From: a virus | Lineage: Duplodnaviria; Heunggongvirae; Uroviricota; Caudoviricetes | Reading direction: 5' to 3' (one strand) | Virus record (IMG/VR): IMGVR_UViG_3300035522_000061 | Coordinates: 1-64,000 of that record | DNA: 64,000 bases | Shown: positions 1 through 55,515 of the stretch, one piece after another | Position numbering within the stretch: position 1 is the stretch's first letter | Layout: every line of letters begins with the position of its first letter | Notes under the pieces: model-generated | What the model was told of the DNA's origin: nothing | Database searches by the model: none | What the model saw: the letters and a program-made list of their open reading frames with translations, nothing else | Program-made: the position numbers and the translations under genes

Positions 1-23
1 TTAATTACTAAATTATAGAGATT

Positions 24-563
24 ATGAAAAAGAATGATGTTGAGTCTTTGACTCCTGCTCAGTCTAAGAAAATTGACGAGCTCATGGCTGTCGGTATCAC
101 CGAAGAGGCTGCTGTTGGTATGGTCGTAACTATGGACAACCGTTCCTTGAATAACGAGGAGCTGGCAGTAGGAGATATCCTACATATCAAGGGTATGGCT
201 TCGGACGTATCTTCGTTCGACACTGACGACGGAGATAAAGCGTTCTTCATGAACGTCCTAACCTCCGGCAGCCGAGGCACCGTTTCCATCTCCCGACTCA
301 TCGGGACTGCTAAGCCCCAGAAAGTTTTCACTGAGGGGGCTGAGTGGTTGGATGACGTCGTTCCGGAAGCGTTCAACAAGGAAGATTATTTCTACTTAAA
401 TGAGCGTACTGTAGCGGATGCTGCAAAGGAGTTGATGCTCCTTAAGAAGGGATGGGAGAAAGACCATGCAGGCAAGACCTACACGCTGCAAATTGTGGCA
501 CGCGCGGAACGTGTTGCCTCATATGGGAAAACCTACTGGTACCTATTTAAGGTAATTGAGTAA
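24..563 (+). CDS. hypothetical protein (GC-richer gene at window edge)
   Basis: 179-aa ORF at ~50% GC versus ~30% for the rest of the window. A strong intrinsic terminator follows immediately. Confidence 0.5.
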   Translation: MKKNDVESLTPAQSKKIDELMAVGITEEAAVGMVVTMDNRSLNNEELAVGDILHIKGMASDVSSFDTDDGDKAFFMNVLTSGSRGTVSISRLIGTAKPQKVFTEGAEWLDDVVPEAFNKEDYFYLNERTVADAAKELMLLKKGWEKDHAGKTYTLQIVARAERVASYGKTYWYLFKVIE

Positions 564-858
564 AAGGGTGGACACTCCATTAGGAGTGTCTTTCCCCTTT
601 TTTATTTTGTATATTTTTTGTATGATTTATCACACAGTATTTGGTCGACTTGACCATCTGGATATATTTACCAAAACCAAAAAATACAAAATATACCCAA
701 ATTGGTACGGAAGATGTGTATTATTAGGATTCTTTACTCTTATGAAAAAGGGTAATGAGTGGGAAATTATTAGAGTGTTGCCCGCAAAGAAACCTAAATA
801 TGCATTTGATGAATGGTTAGCATCTCACAAAGAAGATTGGAGAGGTTCCTTTAGATGA
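556..858 (+). CDS. hypothetical small protein (doubtful N-terminus)
   Basis: ORF-track ORF whose 5' part overlaps the terminator hairpin. Only the C-terminal half looks protein-like. Confidence 0.2.
   Translation: MSKRVDTPLGVSFPFFILYIFCMIYHTVFGRLDHLDIFTKTKKYKIYPNWYGRCVLLGFFTLMKKGNEWEIIRVLPAKKPKYAFDEWLASHKEDWRGSFR
569..606 (+). terminator. rho-independent terminator
   Basis: Hairpin GACACTCC-ATTA-GGAGTGTC followed by TTTCCCCTTTTTTATTTT. Confidence 0.7.
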
Positions 859-863
859 TAAGA

Positions 864-900
864 GAACGGGTACACTTTTCTGTGCCCGTTTTTCTCTATT
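864..900 (+). terminator. putative rho-independent terminator
   Basis: Imperfect hairpin AACGGGTACAC...GTGCCCGTT followed by a T-rich tract. Confidence 0.45.
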
Positions 901-1028
901 TTCCATATTCCTTCATTTTTCATTTTGTAATCTAGTTTATACTATTTTACAAAAACTATCTTTGTTCTAAAAAGTAATTTTTAAATAAGTAAAAAAAATT
1001 AATTTCTGAAAACTAAATAACTAAAAAT

Positions 1029-7621: not shown

Positions 7622-8428
7622 ATGGCAATTTAGCGAGTTCGATTCTCGCTTAGAGTGCAAAAAGGATAGTATTCTAGTTTAATCCTTTAGTTACCCATGA
7701 TGGGTAACGTTACTCACTACTTTTAGGTATTAAGTAAAGTTTTTCAGAAAATGCTAGATTGCCTATTTCTGAAAATGCGCTTTTTAAAACGGCAAATAAA
7801 AAGGGTAGAGTACGCCCAAGTCATTTAGTCCTGTTCCTAACCACCTTCTAAATCTGACTTGTAAATATTAAGGTTTGTAAGGTGAGGTCGTAATGAAACA
7901 CTCAAATGGTTAGTCCTTTTGATGCCTATGTTAATGTTTAGCCATCAACGAACATTACGTTTATTAATATGTTAGTGTTAAGTGTTCCCATATCTATTAA
8001 ACTCAATCCTTTATGTATATTCTAGGAACTACAAATCAGAAAGCTTTTGTGATTATAGAAAGTGGAAAAGAAATTATTTTTACTTATGATTATACAAGAG
8101 CTAACCAGTATGAAAAAATAGGAGATGCTATGAAAATGGCAGCTACTATAAATCACATATTAGGAAAATGTATAATATCAATAATAAGTGGAAATTTTGA
8201 TTGATTTTACGTTATGCTTAAATATTTTAGGCATTGCCTTAATAGCTGTAATAAGCTATCTTTTTAAAACCTCAGTTTCTAGTAATCTGTAAACTAGTGA
8301 CTTTTCGAATTTTCAACAAGAAAACTAGGGTTTAGCACAACCTAAAAGTGAACTGACCAATGTCTATTGGTAAAAGAGGTTTTATTGTATTGGTGAGGTT
8401 TCCGATATGTAGAATAAGATCTCTTAAT

Positions 8429-8495
8429 TCCTTATAGCTTAACTGGATAAAGCGCAATATAGTATTGAGTTTTGGGTTCGAATCCCAATAAGGAA
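8429..8495 (+). tRNA. tRNA-like gene (degenerate anticodon arm)
   Basis: Acceptor TCCTTAT/ATAAGGA. D-arm GCTT...AAGC. T-arm TGGG-TTCGAAT-CCCA. The anticodon arm has only a 4-bp stem and a 5-nt loop. Confidence 0.35.
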
Positions 8496-8513
8496 ACAAT
8501 AATATTTTAGATT

Positions 8514-20082: not shown

Positions 20083-21360
20083 ATGCAGGAGTCTCTTTTT
20101 ACTAATATAAGTAGGGACGAGCGACAAGAACAAGGAAGAGTAAAATGGATTAAAAATAAATGTAGAGGAACCTTAGAATTTCCAACTGGGGTAGGTAAAA
20201 CAAGAACTGCTCTTAAATGTTTGAGTTCTGTCTTAGATAAGTACCCAGAATTAAGAATTTTAGTAGTTGTTCCTACAGATAATTTAAAATCACAGTGGAT
20301 TCCTCAATTAGATACCTGGGGATTGGGTTATAATTCTGAGGTTCAAATTATAAACACTGTTGTTAAACGAAATTGGCAAGCTGACATATTGGTATTAGAT
20401 GAATGCCATCGCTATAACTCGGATACCTTTAAAGAAATCTTCCATAAAGTAAGATATCGATATATTTTAGGACTTACAGCAACATTTGAACGTTTAGATG
20501 ATAAACATGCAATAATGGAAAAGTATTGTCCTGTTATTGATAAAATTACTACTGAGGAAGCTTTAGCTAATGGTTGGATTTCAGAATTCAAGGAATATCA
20601 AGTATTAATAGATGTAGACGATATTGATGTATATAAACAATACAACAGAGAGTTTACAGAACATTATGAGTTTTTTGGATTTGATTTTAATCTAGCTATG
20701 TCTTGTATTGGCCCGAAAGGATTTATTAATAGAGCTAAACTTAGAGATATGATGTGTCCAACTGGCACAGAAGAGCAACGTAAACAAGTATTCAAGAACA
20801 TTACTTATCACGCTACTGCTTTTATGAGAACTATTCAAAAACGAAAAGCTTTCATAAATAATCATCCTAAGAAGCTGGAACTTGCTAGAAAGATTATTAA
20901 TGCACGACCAACTGCAAAAATAATTACTTTTTCAAATAATGTAGCAATGGCTGAGGCTATAGGTCTCGGAATGGTCTACACAGGTAAAGATAGCAAGAAA
21001 AAAGGTCGTATAACATTGGAAGAATTCAATGAAATGCCCTTTGGTGTAATAAATTCGTGCGCCAAACTCAACGAAGGTGCAGATATAAAAGGTTTGTCAG
21101 TTGCTATTGTTCTTGGACGAGATTCCTCTGAAACTAAATCTGTTCAAAGAAGAGGTAGGGTCGTTAGAAAGGAAGGCGATAAGATAGCAGAGATATTTAA
21201 TTTGGTAATTGACCAAACAGTAGAAACAAAATGGTTTTCTAATTCTCACCAAACTACGGAATATATTACTATAGACGAAAAAGGTCTTGATAATGTATTA
21301 GATGGGAAAGAACCAGAACCATATGTAAAGAAAATAAAAGATTTTACATTTAGATATTAA
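20083..21360 (+). CDS. SF2 DEAH-box helicase (UvsW/RecG-like)
   Basis: Walker A FPTGVGKTRTAL, DECH box (LVLDECHRY) and motif VI QRRGRVVRK. Confidence 0.7.
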   Translation: MQESLFTNISRDERQEQGRVKWIKNKCRGTLEFPTGVGKTRTALKCLSSVLDKYPELRILVVVPTDNLKSQWIPQLDTWGLGYNSEVQIINTVVKRNWQADILVLDECHRYNSDTFKEIFHKVRYRYILGLTATFERLDDKHAIMEKYCPVIDKITTEEALANGWISEFKEYQVLIDVDDIDVYKQYNREFTEHYEFFGFDFNLAMSCIGPKGFINRAKLRDMMCPTGTEEQRKQVFKNITYHATAFMRTIQKRKAFINNHPKKLELARKIINARPTAKIITFSNNVAMAEAIGLGMVYTGKDSKKKGRITLEEFNEMPFGVINSCAKLNEGADIKGLSVAIVLGRDSSETKSVQRRGRVVRKEGDKIAEIFNLVIDQTVETKWFSNSHQTTEYITIDEKGLDNVLDGKEPEPYVKKIKDFTFRY

Positions 21361-21450
21361 CGTATGTAGTGATTCCGCTCCGAAAGGAGAATAAACATTT
21401 TACAGTTTAGAGATTGCAACTTTTTAAGTAAATATCTTTAAACTAGAAAT

Positions 21451-22071
21451 TTGAAACATTTAACTCTAAGTTTAGAAGAGGAAATAAATCTCTTGGACAA
21501 ATATAATTTAACTCCTAATGAATTCCTAATAGTTAAAGTTCTTCTATTATTGCAAGATAATGAAGAAGAAGAATTGTTTTATAATTTAATAACAACTATA
21601 AAACATATTGGGCTTGCATTGCGAGATATTCTTATTAGTTTACAAGAGAAGGGTGTAATTTTAAAAACATATAAAGTACCATCTGAAGGAACTAAATTTG
21701 ATCCTTTTGCTATTCCTATTAATAAGAATTTTGTAAAGCATTTTTATAAATGTTCTTTTGAAATAGGTAAAGAATTATTTGATAATTATCCTCAGTTCGC
21801 TACTATTAACGGTTGTGTAGTACCCCTACGTACTGTTGCTAAGAAGTTTGATTCATTAGAACAAGCTTATCTTAAATATGGTAGAGCAATTGGATTTAAT
21901 CCAGAAAAGCATGAGAAAATTATAGAATTAGTTAAATGGGCAAAAGACAATAATATCTTAAATTGTTCTTTAGCTTCATTTATAGTTAATGAAGGGTGGC
22001 ACGATTTAGAGGCTCTCAGAAATGGTAAAGATGTGGCAAATATTAATTATGATGCAGTTAGAATTTTATGA
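21451..22071 (+). CDS. hypothetical protein (upstream partner of the helicase, possible loader)
   Basis: 206 aa. ATGA-coupled to the DnaB-like gene. Confidence 0.35.
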   Translation: MKHLTLSLEEEINLLDKYNLTPNEFLIVKVLLLLQDNEEEELFYNLITTIKHIGLALRDILISLQEKGVILKTYKVPSEGTKFDPFAIPINKNFVKHFYKCSFEIGKELFDNYPQFATINGCVVPLRTVAKKFDSLEQAYLKYGRAIGFNPEKHEKIIELVKWAKDNNILNCSLASFIVNEGWHDLEALRNGKDVANINYDAVRIL

Positions 22072-22847
22072 TTGCAGAATCATTACTTCATCAGATTGAA
22101 GTAGGTAGATTAGGTAAGCAGTGGGGATACTCAATGGGTCTCCCAAAATTAGAAGAGATAATAGATGGAGTATCTAGAGGAATTTATACTTTAGTATTTA
22201 GTCCTACTGGTAGTGGTAAGAGTTCACTTGCTTTATATTCTTATGTATATAGACCATTAATGGAACATCTTGATGATGGTAATTTTAAAGTTAGTTATTT
22301 TTCATTAGAGATGAGCGCCGAAATGATCTATGCTAAGATATTAAGTATGTATATCTTTGAAACTTATGGAATAGAGTTGTCTACTGGAGAACTTCTTTCT
22401 AGAAAACGTAATTATAAATTATCTGATGATTATTATAAAATAACTCAAGAATGTTTACCTTGGTTACAGAAGGTTGAAAAGATTTTAGTTATTTATGATA
22501 AAGCATTAAATGCTAGTAGTTTATATACAATCTTAATGGCTCAACTAGAAAAAGATGGCAAGTTTGAAGAAACAGATGGTAGAAAAATATATCATCCTAG
22601 TAATGAAGAACTTACTCATTTAGTAGTTATAGACCATTTAAGTTTAGTAAGAAGGTCTAATGGACGTACTCTAAAAGAAGAAATGGATTTAATATCCTCC
22701 TATTTGGTAACATTAAGAAATATATGTAAAATTAGTCCGCTTGTAATTATGCAAGCAAATCGAAATTCTACTTCTATGGATAGAAGAAAAGAAGGATTAA
22801 ATAACTTAAGAATTGATGATACCAAAGATACTGGTGCGCCAAATTAG
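22068..22847 (+). CDS. DnaB-like replicative helicase RecA-fold domain, exon 1 (gene interrupted)
   Basis: Walker A SPTGSGKSS, Walker B HLVVIDHLS and MQANR motif. The ORF stops just before the conserved arginine-finger region, which reappears ~250 nt downstream. Confidence 0.6.
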   Translation: MIAESLLHQIEVGRLGKQWGYSMGLPKLEEIIDGVSRGIYTLVFSPTGSGKSSLALYSYVYRPLMEHLDDGNFKVSYFSLEMSAEMIYAKILSMYIFETYGIELSTGELLSRKRNYKLSDDYYKITQECLPWLQKVEKILVIYDKALNASSLYTILMAQLEKDGKFEETDGRKIYHPSNEELTHLVVIDHLSLVRRSNGRTLKEEMDLISSYLVTLRNICKISPLVIMQANRNSTSMDRRKEGLNNLRIDDTKDTGAPN

Positions 22848-23091
22848 GGCTAGACGCACCTAAAACTCCGTTAAACGGGGAAACTCCTAAATAGGACAAT
22901 CCCGTGCTAAATCCTTTAGAAATAAAGGAAAACGCCTAACGACTAGAAGTGATGCTAAACAGGTAGAGCTGTAGCTATAAAATCTTCCACGAAAGCGGGG
23001 CACTGCTTACATTTGTAAGTTAAAGAGATAGTCTGAACTATATAGTAATATATAGAAGTATAAGATAAAGAACTTATACGATAACATTATG
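22837..23091 (+). mobile_element. putative group I intron in the DnaB-like helicase gene (no homing endonuclease; boundaries +/-10 nt)
   Basis: ~255-nt GC-richer non-coding gap between two halves of one helicase. The downstream half has no ATG. Confidence 0.4.
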
Positions 23092-23398
23092 CAGCCCAGG
23101 ATTCGGAAATAATTATATCTATTTTTAATCCTCATAGAGAAAAATTAGCTAGTTATAGAGGATATGACATAAAACAGTTAGGTGCTAATTTTAGAAGTAT
23201 AACAGTTTTAAAGAATAGATATGGAGAATCTGATGTAGAAGTAGGATGTGCCTTTTATGGTGCAGTTTCAATATTTTCAGAACTTCCAAAACCAGATGAA
23301 ATTTATGATTATGCAAAGTATAAAAGTTCCGAATGGCTTTTAGCTAATAGTAAAGAAGATACAGAAGAAAAACAATCAAAACACAATTTTGTATTATA
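23085..23398 (+). CDS. DnaB-like helicase exon 2 (C-terminal segment, no start codon)
   Basis: Open frame AAQDSEIIISIFNPHRE...KNRYGESDVEVGCAFYG aligns with DnaB (IEQDADLIMFIYR...KQRNGPIGTVRLTF). It contains no Met. Confidence 0.5.
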
Positions 23399-23671
23399 AT
23401 GGCAGCGCAGACAATATTAATTTTAGGTGAAAGTGGACAAGGTAAAAGTTCTAGTTTAAGAAATTTAAATGCGGAAGAAACATTTATTATTTCTACTACT
23501 TCTAAACCTCTTCCTTGGAGAGGTTGGAAAAAGCACTTTAAGAAATGGGATCCTAAAACTAGTCCAGAGGGTAATTGGTATCAAACTTCTAAATCTTCTA
23601 ATATAATTACTATTGTTAAATATGTTAACTCTAAGAGACCGGAGATAAAGAATATCGTAGTCGATAAGTAA
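23399..23671 (+). CDS. P-loop NTPase-like small protein (possibly a truncated or interrupted gene)
   Basis: ILILGESGQGKSSS is a Walker A motif. The ORF is only 90 aa. A GIY-YIG homing endonuclease follows. Confidence 0.35.
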   Translation: MAAQTILILGESGQGKSSSLRNLNAEETFIISTTSKPLPWRGWKKHFKKWDPKTSPEGNWYQTSKSSNIITIVKYVNSKRPEIKNIVVDK

Positions 23672-23944
23672 AAATTGTCGACTTTAAATCCCGTTAATTG
23701 CTGGGACATCCTTAGAGCTTTATAAACTACAACGATGATTAGTAATAATGAACGTGAATGTTTAAAAATTATAAAGATTGGACAATCAGCAGCCAAGATT
23801 CTATATGGCGAAATAGAATAAGGTTCACAGACTATCCTTTATGGAGTAAAAATTGAAAAACAAATATTTGCTTTTTAATTTTGAAAAGCGGGAAATTTAG
23901 AGTATATTTGAAGTAAATTATTAATAATAAATTTATTTCAAAAT

Positions 23945-24871
23945 ATGCAACAAAATAATTATTCATTTTATGTTCTTAAATCGGACATATCGCCAGACGA
24001 AATTCGTTATGTAGGAGTAACTACTCAAAAATTAGATAGAAGATTTTCTCAACATAAATACTGTGCTAACCATCCAGAAAAAAGAGGATTACCTGTTCAT
24101 AAATGGATATACTCTGTATATAAAAATGGGGGCTCAGTTATTATAGAGAAAATAGACGAATGCTCAGAAGAAGCTTGGGAAGCTAGAGAGCAATACTGGA
24201 TTAGTTATTATAAAAACCTTGGACATAAATTAATGAATATTGACAAAGGAGGAAAAGGTGTAATAACTAAAGAAAAAAGAAGTATTGATTCTCTTACAAG
24301 AGCAGGAAATGCCCATAAAAAACCGATAACAGCATTTAATTTAGATGGCACTAAATATAAAGATTTTGATTCTATTACTGAAGCAGCAGCTGAATTAAAC
24401 GGATCAATAACTAATATAGATAGTGTATTAAATGGTAATTCTAAATCAGCTTGTGGTTTTATATGGAAATATAAAACAGAAGAAGAAAAAATAGATTCTT
24501 ATAAAAAAGAATCTATTGGAATTAAAATATATCAGTTTGATTTATATGGAAATTTATTAAGAGAATTTGAAAGTAAAAAGTGTGTAATTCAATTCCTTAA
24601 TAAAAATAGCCACCACGCGTTGGATAAAGCCATAAAAAATAAAACTGAATATAAAAGGTTCTTTTGGGCATTAACTGATAAAATAAATATTTCCGAGTAT
24701 GTATCTCCATTTAAATATAAGATTACTAAAAATGGAGAGGAAGTAATTCAATTAATAGAACAAAAAGAAGTTGCTGAGTATTTATGTATATCTAAATCTG
24801 CTGTTAATCAGTGGTTAAAGAAATATAACGGATCGTTTTCATGTAATAATTATATTGTTGATACAATCTAA
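23945..24871 (+). CDS. GIY-YIG homing endonuclease
   Basis: N-terminal YSFYVL...IRYVGVTTQ...R, then FSQHK and N motifs. C-terminal repeated DNA-binding modules (NUMOD/IENR-like GFIWKYK, HTH). Confidence 0.65.
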   Translation: MQQNNYSFYVLKSDISPDEIRYVGVTTQKLDRRFSQHKYCANHPEKRGLPVHKWIYSVYKNGGSVIIEKIDECSEEAWEAREQYWISYYKNLGHKLMNIDKGGKGVITKEKRSIDSLTRAGNAHKKPITAFNLDGTKYKDFDSITEAAAELNGSITNIDSVLNGNSKSACGFIWKYKTEEEKIDSYKKESIGIKIYQFDLYGNLLREFESKKCVIQFLNKNSHHALDKAIKNKTEYKRFFWALTDKINISEYVSPFKYKITKNGEEVIQLIEQKEVAEYLCISKSAVNQWLKKYNGSFSCNNYIVDTI

Positions 24872-24919
24872 ATTAAGATATAGTCGGTCTTATATTGAAA
24901 AATATAAGGTTGCACGGAT

Positions 24920-25339
24920 TTGCAATATACCATGTCTTTCGAATACATGGATCGTAGGTCTGAAACTGGATTTACTAAGTTTTCTGATATTGGTGGAGAC
25001 TTTACTGATCTTTTAAGAGTTGCAGATATTATTAGAGATGATATTAAACTTATCTTCACAGGACACAGTGAGAATGTCGGAGATGCTATGAACCCACACT
25101 GGAGTTTGAAAACAATTGGCAAAATGGTTAATGAAAAGATTACTCCAGAAGGTTTGTTTACTTATGTTTTCTACGCGATGGCTATACCAGGAGATAATAA
25201 AATGGAATATAAATTTCTTACTAATACAGATGGTGAGCATGTCGCTAAAACTCCTCTAGGAATGTTTGAAGAACAACTAATAGATAATGATGTTGCAGAG
25301 ATTATTAAGATTATAGACGCATATAACGAAGGAGAATAA
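24920..25339 (+). CDS. hypothetical protein
   Basis: 139-aa ORF that the track starts at a TTG. The frame is open upstream. Confidence 0.4.
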   Translation: MQYTMSFEYMDRRSETGFTKFSDIGGDFTDLLRVADIIRDDIKLIFTGHSENVGDAMNPHWSLKTIGKMVNEKITPEGLFTYVFYAMAIPGDNKMEYKFLTNTDGEHVAKTPLGMFEEQLIDNDVAEIIKIIDAYNEGE

Positions 25340-42287: not shown

Positions 42288-43499
42288 ATGAAAGTAACAA
42301 AAAGAAACGGTGAGCCCGCTGAGTTTAATAGAAGTAAAATTGTAAATGCAGTTTCAGCAGCATTTAAAGAATGTGGGTACGAAAGTATCCCTAAAACTAT
42401 TGAGGAAATTGTAGATGAAGTCCAGATTTGGGATAATATCAGTATTGAAGATATACAAGATCAAGTTGAAGAACTTTTAATGGATTATGGATATTCAGAT
42501 GTAGCTAAAGCTTATATTCTTTATAGAGAAGAACGTAAGATGATCCGTGCTGAAAAAGATAAACTCATTAAAGGTATTAAATCTAAACTTGAAGCTTCTA
42601 ATGTAAAAAATCAAAATGCTAATATTGATGAGCATTCATTTGGTGGACGTATTGGCGAAGCAGGTAGAGTTGTAACTAAAGATTATGCTCTTAATTATTG
42701 TATGTCTGAAATGGCTAAGCATAATCATGAAAATAATGAAATATACATTCATGATTTGGATTCTTACGCTGTAGGGATGCACAACTGTTTGAGCATACCA
42801 GTAGATGACTTACTTGCTAACGGGTTTAAGCTAAAGCAAACTGATGTTAGACCTGCTAAGAGTATTAATACAGCATTTCAATTATTAGCTGTAATATTCC
42901 AAGTACAAAGTTTACAACAATTTGGTGGTGTATCTGCAACTCATTTAGATTGGACTATGGTTCCCTATGTAAGACTATCTTTTAATAAGCATTATAGAAC
43001 TGGATTGAAGTATATTGATCACATTCGTAATGAAAAATACGATCAAACAGATTTGTCTATAGAAGATAGTTTGTATAAAGAACATCCTAATTCTTATGAA
43101 TATGCTTTGGATATGACTAAACGAGAAATTCATCAAGCTGTTGAAGGTATGTATCATAATTTAAATACTCTACAAAGTAGAAGTGGTAATCAATTACCTT
43201 TTACTTCTATTAATTATGGTACTTGTACACAACCTGAAGGACGTCTTATTAGTCTAGCTTTACTTGAAGTAAGTAAGAATGGTATTGGTAGCCATCATAG
43301 CACTCCGATTTTTCCGTGCTGTATCGTTCAATTAATGAAAGGTGTTAATCGAAAACCTGGAGATCCGAATTATGATATATTCCAAGAAGCTACTAAGGTT
43401 ACGAGTCTTAGGTTATACCCTAATTATGCCAATGTAGATTGGTCTGGTAATGAAGGGTATGATATAAACGATCCTCGCACTTATTTCAGTACAATGGGT
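42288..43499 (+). CDS. nrdD: anaerobic ribonucleoside-triphosphate reductase NrdD, exon 1 (ATP cone plus N-terminal catalytic region)
   Basis: ATP-cone start MKVTKRNGEPAEFNRSKI. The ORF-track ORF runs to 43505 (...YFSTMGK*). The proposed exon ends after STMG at 43499. Confidence 0.7.
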
Positions 43500-43792
43500 A
43501 AGTGAAAACTGCAGCCCATTTAAAATCTCTTTAACCCTGCTTAAGGGGTGTTTCTATTTAAGCGTAGAAGCTAACGGTTAGGTCTTATTATATAATTGCA
43601 GTGTAAATAATAAGATGAGACCGTGCTAATGTACTTATAGTTATATTAGTACAGAATGTGTATCGACTAAGGGTGATGAGTGTAGCCCTGTAGGATCGGA
43701 GATAAGCACCGATTCCAAACAAGAGACAACTCTTTGTTGTGAAACAAGGAATGAACATATAGTCAGTTCCGATGGTGACATTGGGTAAAATG
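43500..43792 (+). mobile_element. putative group I intron in nrdD (no ORF)
   Basis: 293-nt GC-richer insert. Splicing after ...ATGGGT (U at -1) to TGTAGA... (intron ends in G) gives STMG|CRTANGW. T4 nrdD/sunY is a known intron-containing precedent. Confidence 0.5.
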
Positions 43793-53154: not shown

Positions 53155-54444
53155 ATGATTTATTTAGTAAGTAAAGATAAAAAACTATATTCTCCAGAAA
53201 GATATAGAGAAGTAGACTTTAAGGAGGCTATGGATATTTTATATCCTTTAAAAGAGGTACAATTAGATACAGAAACTAAAGGATTAGATTGTTTTACGAA
53301 GGAATTACTTACTTTGCAATTAGGGTGTACTGAAAATCAAGTTGTATTTGATTGGAGAACTATAAGTCCTTCTGAAAAGTCTATTTTAAAAGAATATCTA
53401 GAGTCTGATAGAGTGTTCTTGGGGCATAATATAATGTTTGATTTAACCTTTTTATATAAACAAAATATTTGGCCCAATCATGTTTATGATACTATGGTAG
53501 TAGAACAATTAATATATTTAGGGTATCCTAGAGTATTAGCTACCGAAATAGTACAGACATATGGAATTAAACCTTCTTGTTATGAATATATTGCTCCCGA
53601 CGAAAAAACTAAAGAACATTGGGAATTATCTTATTCTTTACGAGCTACTGCAAAAAGAAGACTTGGAGTAGATATTGACAAAACTGTTCGAGGAAAAATT
53701 ATAAATGAAGGTTTAACAGAAGATGTTGTAGTATATGCTGCTGGGGATGTAATGTGGCTAGAGCCTATAAAAGAAAAGCAACTAGAAGAATTATCTACTC
53801 AAGATCTTTTAAAGGCTGCAGAATTTGAATGTGAATTTATTAAATTTTTAGCATATGTAAAATTCTGTGGAGTTCATTTGGATATTTCTAAATGGAAAGA
53901 AAAAATGAAAAATGATCAAGCTTCTTTAAGAGAAGCTGAGTCACAATTAAATAAATTTGTTATAGATTTAGATGCTAAAGAATATTTATATAGATATGCT
54001 AAAAATAAAAAAGAAAAAGAAAAATTAGTAGCATTAGGATTTATTCGATTTCCCGAAAAAGATGATTCTATGGAGTGTTACAGATATAAAATAAAAGGAA
54101 AATTTGTATCTATAAATTTACAATTATCCTTATTTGAAGAATGTAATGACATAGGGCCACAATGCACTATAAATTGGAGTAGTTCTACTCAAGTTATAAA
54201 ATTATTTGAACTTCTTGGGATACAAGTTACAACTTTTGATAAAAAGACTAAAAAAGAAAAGAAGTCCATTAATGCTACGTTAATTAGTTCTCAAGTTGAT
54301 AAATTTCCTATTCTTGCTATATTTTTAAAGTATCAAGCCGCCTCAAAAGTTGTATCTACTTATGGTCAAAACTGGTTAGACGCTATTAATCCAGTAACTG
54401 GAAGAATTCATGTTGATCTACATTCTATTGGAACAGATACAGGT
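53155..54444 (+). CDS. family A DNA polymerase, exon 1 (3'-5' exonuclease plus N-terminal polymerase part)
   Basis: Exo I QLDTETKGLD, Exo II HNIMFDL and Exo III YAAGDV. Ends ...VTGRIHVDLHSIGTDTG. The track ORF stops at 54459. Confidence 0.7.
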
Positions 54445-55515
54445 GAAAAATTTCCATAAATTACAATTTTTCTATTAATTTTATTTCTAAGGTATTAACT
54501 ATTTTAATCTGTCCTAAATAATTATTATATTTGCATATAATAAATTTAAATTAAATATATGTATTATGATTAAAAAATGGACTGAGTAGGAAATAGAAAA
54601 TTTAGTATCTGAGTATAACTCAGGTAAAGATACTGGAGAATTAGCAGTTATGTTTAATTGTTCTAAGTATCAAATTAGAAATAAATTAAAAGATAAGGGG
54701 ATTGTTTTAAGAAAAACTGCCCTTAATCGAACTTATAAATCGAAAGCTATTGTTCCGTTACAAGCATGGACAGATAAAATAGGCAGTCCAGAATTTGACT
54801 ATTTTATTGGAATACTAGCCTCGGATGGTTGTATTGTTGATACTTGTACAGCTTTAGAAGTTAAAGATTTAGAATTAATAGAAAATTATAATAAATTTTT
54901 AGGTTTTCGATGTAATATTAATTCAAGAAAATCTAAAGTTAATGGCAATGTCTATTATAATATTAAGTATAAAAATAAAGAAATAGTTAACTTTTTATCT
55001 GAATATGGTATAGTGCCAAGAAAATCTAACATACTAATGCTTCCATATATAAATTGGAATATATTATTAGGAATTTTTGATGGAGATGGTAGTATTACTA
55101 AAGATAAAAGATATGAGTGCTGTTTTAAATTTACTATTACTTCTGGAAGTATTAATTTTATTAATCAAGTTAAGAAGTTTTTAGAAAAAGAGAATATCTC
55201 TCCAAATATACAAGAATATAATACAGATAGTGGACATTGGTATAATATATATGTAACTAAAGGTGAACATATATATAAAATATATTGTAATTTATATAAA
55301 GACTCCTCTTTCTTTCTGTCTAGAAAGAAAGAAAAATTCGGCCCCTTAGTAGAGAAATTTGCTAAGTGTAACTCCGTAAATTCAGTTAATGGGAGGGAAA
55401 ACCAGAAGACTGAGCCAAGCCTTAATATTGAGGAAGGTGCAGAGACTAGAAACGGAGAACCTAAGTAATAAGTAATTGTTATAAGGTTGAGGTATAGTCC
55501 GGCATGGAAATGTTG
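54445..55515 (+). mobile_element. putative group I intron with LAGLIDADG homing endonuclease splitting the DNA polymerase gene
   Basis: Splicing after ...GATACAGGT (U at -1) to CGAGTATCTAGT... (intron ends in G) yields GTDTG|RVSSGGG..NLP, restoring the Pol I TGR(L)SS...QNIP motif. Confidence 0.5.
54650..55468 (+). CDS. LAGLIDADG homing endonuclease
   Basis: IGILASDGCI and LGIFDGDGSI motifs. Confidence 0.7.
   Translation: MFNCSKYQIRNKLKDKGIVLRKTALNRTYKSKAIVPLQAWTDKIGSPEFDYFIGILASDGCIVDTCTALEVKDLELIENYNKFLGFRCNINSRKSKVNGNVYYNIKYKNKEIVNFLSEYGIVPRKSNILMLPYINWNILLGIFDGDGSITKDKRYECCFKFTITSGSINFINQVKKFLEKENISPNIQEYNTDSGHWYNIYVTKGEHIYKIYCNLYKDSSFFLSRKKEKFGPLVEKFAKCNSVNSVNGRENQKTEPSLNIEEGAETRNGEPK

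Follow-up and report, generated by a model that had tools for sequence, protein, structure and literature searches.

Among phages, the T4-type introns of subgroup IA2 (td, nrdB and nrdD/sunY) have a group I core in which P7.1/P7.2 separate P7 from P3', split a DNA-metabolism gene at a conserved motif, and have an in-frame stop just inside the intron; they carry, or once carried, endonuclease open reading frames (ORFs) of families other than LAGLIDADG in loops other than that of P1. The Twort-like Staphylococcus phages (Twortvirinae) have several short introns of the IA type per genome, with or without an ORF, and with the canonical U at the 5' splice site. The crAss-like Zeta and Delta phages have a very high intron density: according to Yutin et al. 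2021 (PMC7886860), the genomes measure 145-192 kb and hold as many as 14 group I introns, detected via their endonuclease domains; the paper also mentions LAGLIDADG endonucleases and places genes for SNF2, DnaB and an AAA ATPase in the replication block. Here we describe a locus apparently of the same assemblage in the IMG/VR virus record IMGVR_UViG_3300035522_000061, whose positions 1 to 64,000 (64,000 nucleotides, nt; hereafter the window) were analysed. In it, the gene for a DnaB-like replicative helicase is very probably split, at a conserved motif, by a 252-nt ORF-less group I intron of the phage type, IA-like, and with an in-frame stop just inside it. This intron is an ordinary kind of element in gut phages already reported to be intron-rich, and its sole unusual feature is the C.A pairing of its 5' splice site.

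The 5' part of the helicase gene is an ORF of 259 amino acids (aa) at 22068..22847, which in the ORF listing ends with TAG at 22845-47. It contains the Walker A (SPTGSGKSS), Walker B (HLVVIDHL) and IMQANR motifs, and since it matches the Pfam DnaB_C profile only over positions 1-196 of 255 (42.9 bits), the domain is cut short. Downstream, a frame of 104 codons beginning HYAAQDSEIIISIFNPHRE... is open over 23085..23396 with no ATG, GTG or TTG start; the ORF listing likewise holds no such start yielding at least 30 aa in the exon 2 region, and the stop of the frame, TAA at 23397-23399, overlaps the ATG of the next gene. Joining 22068..22839 to 23092..23399 gives a 1080-nt in-frame ORF, whose 359-aa product matches DnaB_C over positions 1-253 of 255 (57.3 bits). 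The intervening segment has a G+C content of 36.5% against 29-30% in the exons, with 100-nt windows peaking at 40-42%, and stops in all three forward frames. A first-pass annotation made from the sequence had remarked on several of these points: the ORF that stops after Walker A, Walker B and QANR is borne out by the ORF list and Pfam, the downstream frame does complete the DnaB C-terminus, the gap is indeed GC-richer and non-coding, and in the case of the start-less 104-codon frame only the end given, 23398, needs correction, being one base short of the TAA.

The segment is also recognized as a ribozyme in its own right. In a scan of all Rfam families, with the E-value covering both strands of the whole 64-kb window, RF00028 matches 22798..23055 at 70.3 bits (gathering score 50; E = 8.6e-16) over the entire model (positions 1-253 of 253). 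Leaving aside tRNAs, this is the sole Rfam match over a curated threshold in the window; the covariance-model scan, which had been suggested earlier as a check, detects the intron directly. We hold with high confidence the following arrangement as a whole, including the removal of 22840..23091 by splicing that its family membership would predict:

22068..22839, plus strand: exon 1 of the DnaB-like helicase gene (ORF list; Pfam DnaB_C 1-196; 3' end from the homologue junction DTG-APA-QDSE)
22840..23091, plus strand: very probable 252-nt group I intron without an ORF, each frame containing stops (Rfam RF00028; minimum free energy, MFE, z = -3.65)
22845..22847, plus strand: in-frame UAG, 6 nt inside the intron, which ends translation of unspliced RNA
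23092..23399, plus strand: exon 2 of the helicase gene, codons ...cCA GCC CAG = P A Q..., stop TAA at 23397-99
Predicted spliced RNA junction, from the joined exons: GGTGCGCC/AGCCCAGG
Predicted 28-mer across the exon 1/exon 2 junction, 252 nt removed: GATACTGGTGCGCC/AGCCCAGGATTCGG
Predicted junction-spanning helicase peptide: DTGAPAQDSEIIISIFNPHR
Empty site in the intron-less allele L025: ...ACTGGTGCACCTGCTCAAGAT...

Translation of unspliced RNA would halt at the UAG at 22845 and yield just the truncated 259-aa protein. The junction itself is placed by the full-length homologues. A protein search with the joined exons finds 891 relatives at E <= 1e-10; among the best 120 listed, 108, all uninterrupted, fit the junction pattern, and in 107 of these 108 the conserved G is separated from Q/E by exactly three residues. 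The ten closest of those listed (73-86% identity) read DTG/DSG-APA-QDSE in nine cases, the tenth having APS. Exon 1 supplies ggt gcg cca (G A P) and exon 2 supplies gca gcc cag (A A Q), and G-A-P-A-Q is obtainable solely from 22839/23092, where exon 1 terminates on the first base (C) of the Pro codon, or from the slid equivalents 22840/23093 and 22841/23094; either shift, by 1 or 2 nt, leaves the product unchanged, since CA occurs at each end of the intron. Only the version 22840..23091 has a G as the final intron base, and this G23091 (the omega G) stands directly before the homology-defined exon 2, as its counterparts do in the relatives L006, L009 and L016. Intron-less alleles have the same arrangement of coding sequence: the DNA across the site in L025/L026, GGTGCACCTGCTCAAGAT, equals exon 1 plus exon 2 (the protein is 86% identical), and L001, with a 51% identical protein, is an empty-site allele colinear across the site. 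The 3' junction of 23091/23092 proposed in the first-pass annotation is right, while the comparison of helicase C-termini that it recommended, through the three-residue spacing, puts the 5' junction at 22839/22840 and not at any of its candidates (22835, 22836 or 22844). Its suggestion that the two frames would be joined by splicing finds support in the Rfam match, the covarying fold, the intron-less alleles and the full-length DnaB_C product.

Several other junctions were tried and rejected against the 108 homologues and the covarying P1. The pair 22835/23091 gives DTG-AA-Q, with two residues and not three, a U opposite A and no terminal G; 22844 or 22845 with 23092 gives DTG-APNSA-Q, with five residues and no drawable P1; and 22845/23095, as well as landings at 23100 in which the conserved Q is lost, fail likewise. 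With G23080 as the terminal G, exon 2 would open with an in-frame TAA. An intein is ruled out by the stops in all three frames of 22840-23091, which preclude an in-frame translated insertion.

The fold was derived from an alignment of 11 related introns that extends from their guide sequences through the terminal G. RNAalifold on these introns yields P3, P4, P5, P6/P6a, P7.1, P7.2, P8, P9 and P9.1, with changes on both sides in 29 of the 55 pairs; with P7 added by hand, the fold comes to 60 pairs in 12 helices. Standard pairs occupy 97.9% of the 659 cells of this 60-pair fold across the 11 sequences, none of 500 column shuffles attains the observed paired fraction, number of covarying pairs or covariation score, and sliding the partners by 1-3 columns lowers the pairing to 34-47% of cells. 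The MFE fold of the window sequence alone recovers the same helices (z = -3.65). The Rfam alignment displays P3, P4, P5, P6, the P7 strands GACUA...UAGUC, P8 and P9, with a 46-nt insertion separating P7 from the 3' strand of P3. There is no P2: the P2 columns of the Rfam model are deleted, and only UAAAA (22861-22865) lies between the guide sequence and P3. The elements are the following:

22833..22839, plus strand: P1 5' strand, GGUGCG followed by C22839, the final base of exon 1 (position -1)
22840..22846, plus strand: start of the P1 loop (L1); relatives carry ~1 kb with a LAGLIDADG_2 ORF between 22843 and 22844
22847..22860, plus strand: internal guide sequence GGGCUAGACGCACC, pairing with both exons
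22866..22872, plus strand: P3 5' strand, pairing with 22994-23000; invariant in the 11 sequences
22875-80 / 22900-05, plus strand: P4, enclosing P5; the P4-P5 region 22875..22905 has G-C to A-U covariation in 5 of 11 sequences
22885-88 / 22893-96, plus strand: P5, inside P4
22906-07 / 22934-35, plus strand: P6 (alignment fold)
22913-18 / 22923-28, plus strand: P6a, compensatory changes in 5 of 6 pairs
22941..22945, plus strand: P7 5' strand GACUA, pseudoknot with 23029-23033, the guanosine-binding helix; invariant in 11 of 11 and matching the Rfam consensus
22946-49 / 22984-87, plus strand: P7.1, compensatory changes in 3 of 4 pairs
22954-62 / 22969-75, plus strand: P7.2, compensatory changes in 4 of 7 pairs
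22994..23000, plus strand: P3 3' strand (alignment fold)
23005..23020, plus strand: P8 hairpin, compensatory changes in 4 of 5 pairs
23029..23033, plus strand: P7 3' strand UAGUC, matching the Rfam consensus GACUA...UAGUC
23038-43 / 23050-55, plus strand: P9 (alignment fold)
23058-64 / 23073-79, plus strand: P9.1, compensatory changes in 7 of 7 pairs
23080..23091, plus strand: 3' tail GAUAACAUUAUG, ending in the omega G 23091

The tails of the aligned introns are GAUAACA in eight, GUUAACA in two and GUAACA in one of the 11. The presence of P7.1/P7.2 between P7 and P3' is reportedly a hallmark of subgroup IA, and together with local similarities to the nrdD (anaerobic ribonucleotide reductase) intron of T4-like phages (75-77% identity over 94 nt of the P3-P6 segment) and to the introns of split capsid genes in Twortvirinae (81% identity over the P7-P9 segment), this points to subgroup IA for the window intron. 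It differs from the T4-type introns in having no P2 and in its C.A, in place of U.G, at the 5' splice site, and its relatives differ from them in keeping a LAGLIDADG ORF in the P1 loop; the Twortvirinae introns lie in other host genes and in another phage lineage.

The guide sequence of the window intron can be paired with both exons. In P1, GGUGCG (22833-38) pairs with CGCACC (22855-60), and in P10, AGCCC (23093-97) pairs with GGGCU (22847-51), with C23092 additionally pairing with G22853. In L006, P1 is GGAGCA/UGCUCU, amounting to two compensatory pairs, and P10 is GGCCC/GGGCC, in which A/U has given way to G/C, making three compensatory pairs when P1 is counted. Since P1 ends at G22838 and the junction lies one base beyond, the last exon base C22839 faces A22854. 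The canonical U.G is thus absent from the 5' splice site in the window when the omega G junction is used, and under the homologue-defined junction the options for position -1 are C22839, C22840 and A22841, never U. The same C.A is present in six distinct same-site sequences (the window, L015, L009, L013, L006 and L035). In L016, whose intron occupies the homologous codon (t/ca, Ser) in a less closely related helicase (...DTNS-S-IEDAE...), the cleavage-site pair is U.G (AAUUCG-U/C...G-CGAAUU). By eye, L019, L022, L018 and L021 appear to be U.G as well, the 5' exon of L018/L021 being one of several candidate matches.

The intron follows the first base of a conserved Pro codon (CCN), and this is the likely reason for C.A rather than U.G. 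On the simplest reading, the need of the helicase for Pro bars U from position -1, and a change of the guide base from G to A keeps a wobble-shaped pair. We lean towards the view that this intron lineage naturally marks its 5' splice site by C.A, probably as a protonated wobble, on account of the conserved CCN codon. It would be a natural double substitution in which C.A replaces U.G at the pair that group I introns conserve most strongly, with L016, at a Ser codon (UCA), keeping U.G. In an alternative drawing, C22839 may be paired with G22853, leaving A22854 bulged. An engineered C.A wobble at the 5' splice site of the Tetrahymena ribozyme is said to have kept the wobble geometry; that was a laboratory mutant, whereas here the covariation is a natural one between homologous introns (C.A in the window, U.G in L016). 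The last exon base is described as 'virtually always a U (or exceptionally a C)' by Tourasse et al. 2014 (PMC4227781); as C at -1 is a documented rare exception, it does not exclude group I membership. The group B IStrons of the Bacillus cereus group (PMC4227781) are likewise natural group I ribozymes with a 5' exon not ending in U, but they splice after G, with the U.G shifted by one position, and carry an insertion sequence (IS) element, whereas the window intron has C opposite A, no shift and no IS. Given that C has been recorded here before, the possible interest for ribozymes is modest. If the codon-driven C.A is true, host codon constraints can reshape splice-site chemistry, splicing would possibly be pH-sensitive, and the C.A/U.G pair of homologous introns would offer a natural test of how strict the wobble-pair requirement is.

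On the pattern of the family, the guide sequence 22847-22860 of the pre-mRNA would pair with the end of exon 1, forming P1 (GGUGCG/CGCACC), and free guanosine bound by P7 would attack the bond 3' of C22839. The guide sequence would hold the start of exon 2 as P10 (C + AGCCC / GGGCU..G), and the released end of exon 1 would attack after G23091, so that the ligated exons would encode a 359-aa helicase reading ...DTGAPAQDSE....

Relatives with an intron at the same site were located via truncated homologues in the protein search, which led to the contigs bearing them. In L013 the P1 loop contains an intact 333-aa ORF with helix-turn-helix (HTH) and LAGLIDADG_2 domains (1.3e-31), and L015 (IMG/VR), whose two exons share 98.3% identity with those of the window, has a 989-nt insert with the ORF, bounded by a CAAA repeat. 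The LAGLIDADG ORF is broken into 104-aa and 126-aa pieces in L006/L007, and only its C-terminal part, fused in frame with exon 1, is left in L009-L012. The window intron has no homing endonuclease ORF and has stops in all frames. As its same-site relatives carry LAGLIDADG_2 in the P1 loop, it is best understood as an endonuclease-deleted form of a mobile intron, and the window copy is, on sequence comparison, a clean deletion bounded by the CAAA repeat, the endonuclease-less end state. The empty site, the intron with an endonuclease, the decayed endonuclease and the clean deletion are all represented among the relatives; hence, the locus together with them makes up a compact homing-cycle series at one site. 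The LAGLIDADG ORF of the relatives (1437..2438 in L013 and 3923..4775 in L015) runs past the P1 loop through the guide sequence, P3, P4 and P5 into P6 (...YKLGLDALKTPLNGETPKKDNPVLNLQETEENA, then a stop), so that the same bases are both ribozyme core and protein tail; 22841..22894 of the window retains a remnant frame of this ORF, KLGLDAPKTPLNGETPK, followed by a stop. In L009-L012, the upstream SNF2/ResIII helicase gene (1..1021) is interrupted by a GIY-YIG endonuclease ORF, and in the window it is intact (20083..21360), which implies that intron content varies gene by gene between close relatives.

Beyond this site, a 22-nt core pattern scanned across IMG/VR and metagenome contigs finds the same ribozyme family, with a near-invariant P3-P4 core and a GAUAACA-type tail, at at least ten insertion sites in gut-phage contigs (L014-L024, L030-L043), each with its own guide sequence. 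The family intron occurs at other sites or in other versions of the helicase gene in L016 and L022, and in the neighbouring AAA-ATPase gene in L018, L021, L023 and L043. The helicase homologue is split at or near the Walker A loop in L002 (1647..2116) and L016 (upstream of ~8300); the L002 insert is ~470 nt, part of it probably coding, with no Rfam match at E <= 0.1. Rfam matches are absent from both L001 and L002, the latter being interrupted elsewhere.

Yutin et al. 2021 (PMC7886860) assign one carrier of the family, OLYV01000018 (177,560 nt), to zeta_6 of the crAss-like phages. The gene order of the window (SNF2 helicase, DnaB, AAA ATPase, primase, SF1 helicase, NrdD, ligase, PolA) fits the replication block of the Zeta group, and we infer that the window phage belongs to the crAss-like Zeta group. 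An ORF-less intron in the DnaB helicase gene is not described for crAss-like Zeta/Delta phages in the text of that survey consulted here; the survey relied on endonuclease domains, to which ORF-less introns would be invisible, so that the intron density is probably underestimated. TAG-to-Gln recoding has been reported for zeta_6 phages, the lineage of OLYV01000018. ARAGORN finds four tRNAs in the window (Glu, Met, Gln and Leu) and no suppressor tRNA among them; read-through of the UAG at 22845 would reach the UAA at 22872, so that TAG recoding leaves the conclusion unchanged. A further Rfam tRNA match at 8428..8496 (50.9 bits; gathering score 29) appears in a permissive scan and is missing from the gathering-mode Rfam scan and from ARAGORN, possibly reflecting an unusual tRNA or a search-filter effect.

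A programmed translational bypass in the style of T4 gene 60, with take-off near 22838, landing near 23091 and no splicing, was the alternative named in the first-pass annotation. The UAG at 22845 does lie close behind the break, and the Ala codons GCG (22836) and GCA (23091) are possible take-off and landing sites, yet a hop between them, the only matched codon pair, would produce DTG-AA-QDSE, losing both the conserved Pro and the three-residue spacing of 107 of the 108 homologues. The bypassed gap of gene 60 is ~50 nt, against 252 nt here; moreover, this gap holds a complete group I ribozyme supported by covariation, for which a bypass would have no need, and a 98%-identical phage (L015) has a 1-kb endonuclease gene in it. 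Accordingly, we consider the bypass extremely improbable and the earlier suggestion of it unsupported. An assembly or sequencing artefact, or translation of the halves as separate subunits of a naturally split helicase, might be entertained in light of the metagenomic origin of the record and the 259-aa piece that is all the gene callers annotate (P0039). It is hardly credible when five contigs share this exon 1 call (the three shown being from different sequencing runs), same-site introns occur in JGI, ENA, Logan and IMG/VR assemblies, and exon 2 offers no ATG, GTG or TTG start giving at least 30 aa.

That the intron is a dead relic which no longer splices, the helicase being a pseudogene or a truncated 259-aa protein only, would agree with the non-canonical C at the 5' splice site and with the loss of the LAGLIDADG ORF, a type of ORF that also serves as a maturase in some systems. 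We think this very unlikely, because none of the core helices is disrupted in the window and the variable helices keep their pairing by compensatory changes, the C.A is retained in six distinct same-site sequences, some with an intact endonuclease, and exon 2 is open and conserved (98.3% nucleotide identity with L015); further, the closest full-length homologue among those listed is 86% identical across the whole spliced protein, and the helicase is a core replication gene in these phages. Some considerations do weigh against a spliced group I intron in the helicase gene. The 11 aligned sequences were gathered by the P3/P4 core pattern, so that this stretch is conserved by construction, and as P3 and P7 are invariant in the family, covariation contributes nothing there and the evidence is the Rfam consensus match only. 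The CA repeat leaves a formal 2-nt ambiguity in the junction, and whether the RNA splices, how efficiently and at precisely which bonds is predicted from the DNA. In model ribozymes, C in place of U at the last exon position weakens the first step; with C in place of the near-universal U at -1, splicing of the intron could be inefficient or depend on a helper.

For annotation, the consequence is that gene callers give the replicative helicase in this phage and its relatives as a 259-aa fragment (P0039, P0111 and P0118), where the predicted product has 359 aa. Elsewhere in the window, the NrdD ORF (42288..43505) stops at position 249 of 562 of the Pfam NRDD profile and the DNA polymerase A ORF (53155..54459) at position 119 of 381 of DNA_pol_A. 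Each resembles the first exon of another split gene, in agreement with the several introns counted in the first-pass annotation; no Rfam intron is found at either locus, even at E <= 0.5. The gene next to the helicase, 23399..25339, which codes for an AAA_24 / ATP_43b-like ATPase homologous to a 231-aa ORF of L001, is likewise split:

23399..23665: exon 1 of the neighbouring ATPase gene
23666..24916: group I intron of the neighbouring ATPase gene, 1251 nt, with a GIY-YIG/NUMOD1 endonuclease ORF at 23945..24871
24917..25339: exon 2 of the neighbouring ATPase gene

In Rfam this intron is represented by sub-threshold pieces only, at 23696-23849 (28.5 bits) and 24873-24905 (24.6 bits). Its splice sites are canonical, U23665 having G as its partner and the intron closing with a G at 24916, and the junction in its product, VVD/DLQYTMSFEY, agrees with L001 (IIDDFQYVLSYEF). 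Compared with phage records at near identity, the DNA of 21400-24000 returned only a 108-nt match, to this neighbouring intron; Providencia phage PSTCR6 is 82.7% identical over 108 nt to its core (23696-23803).

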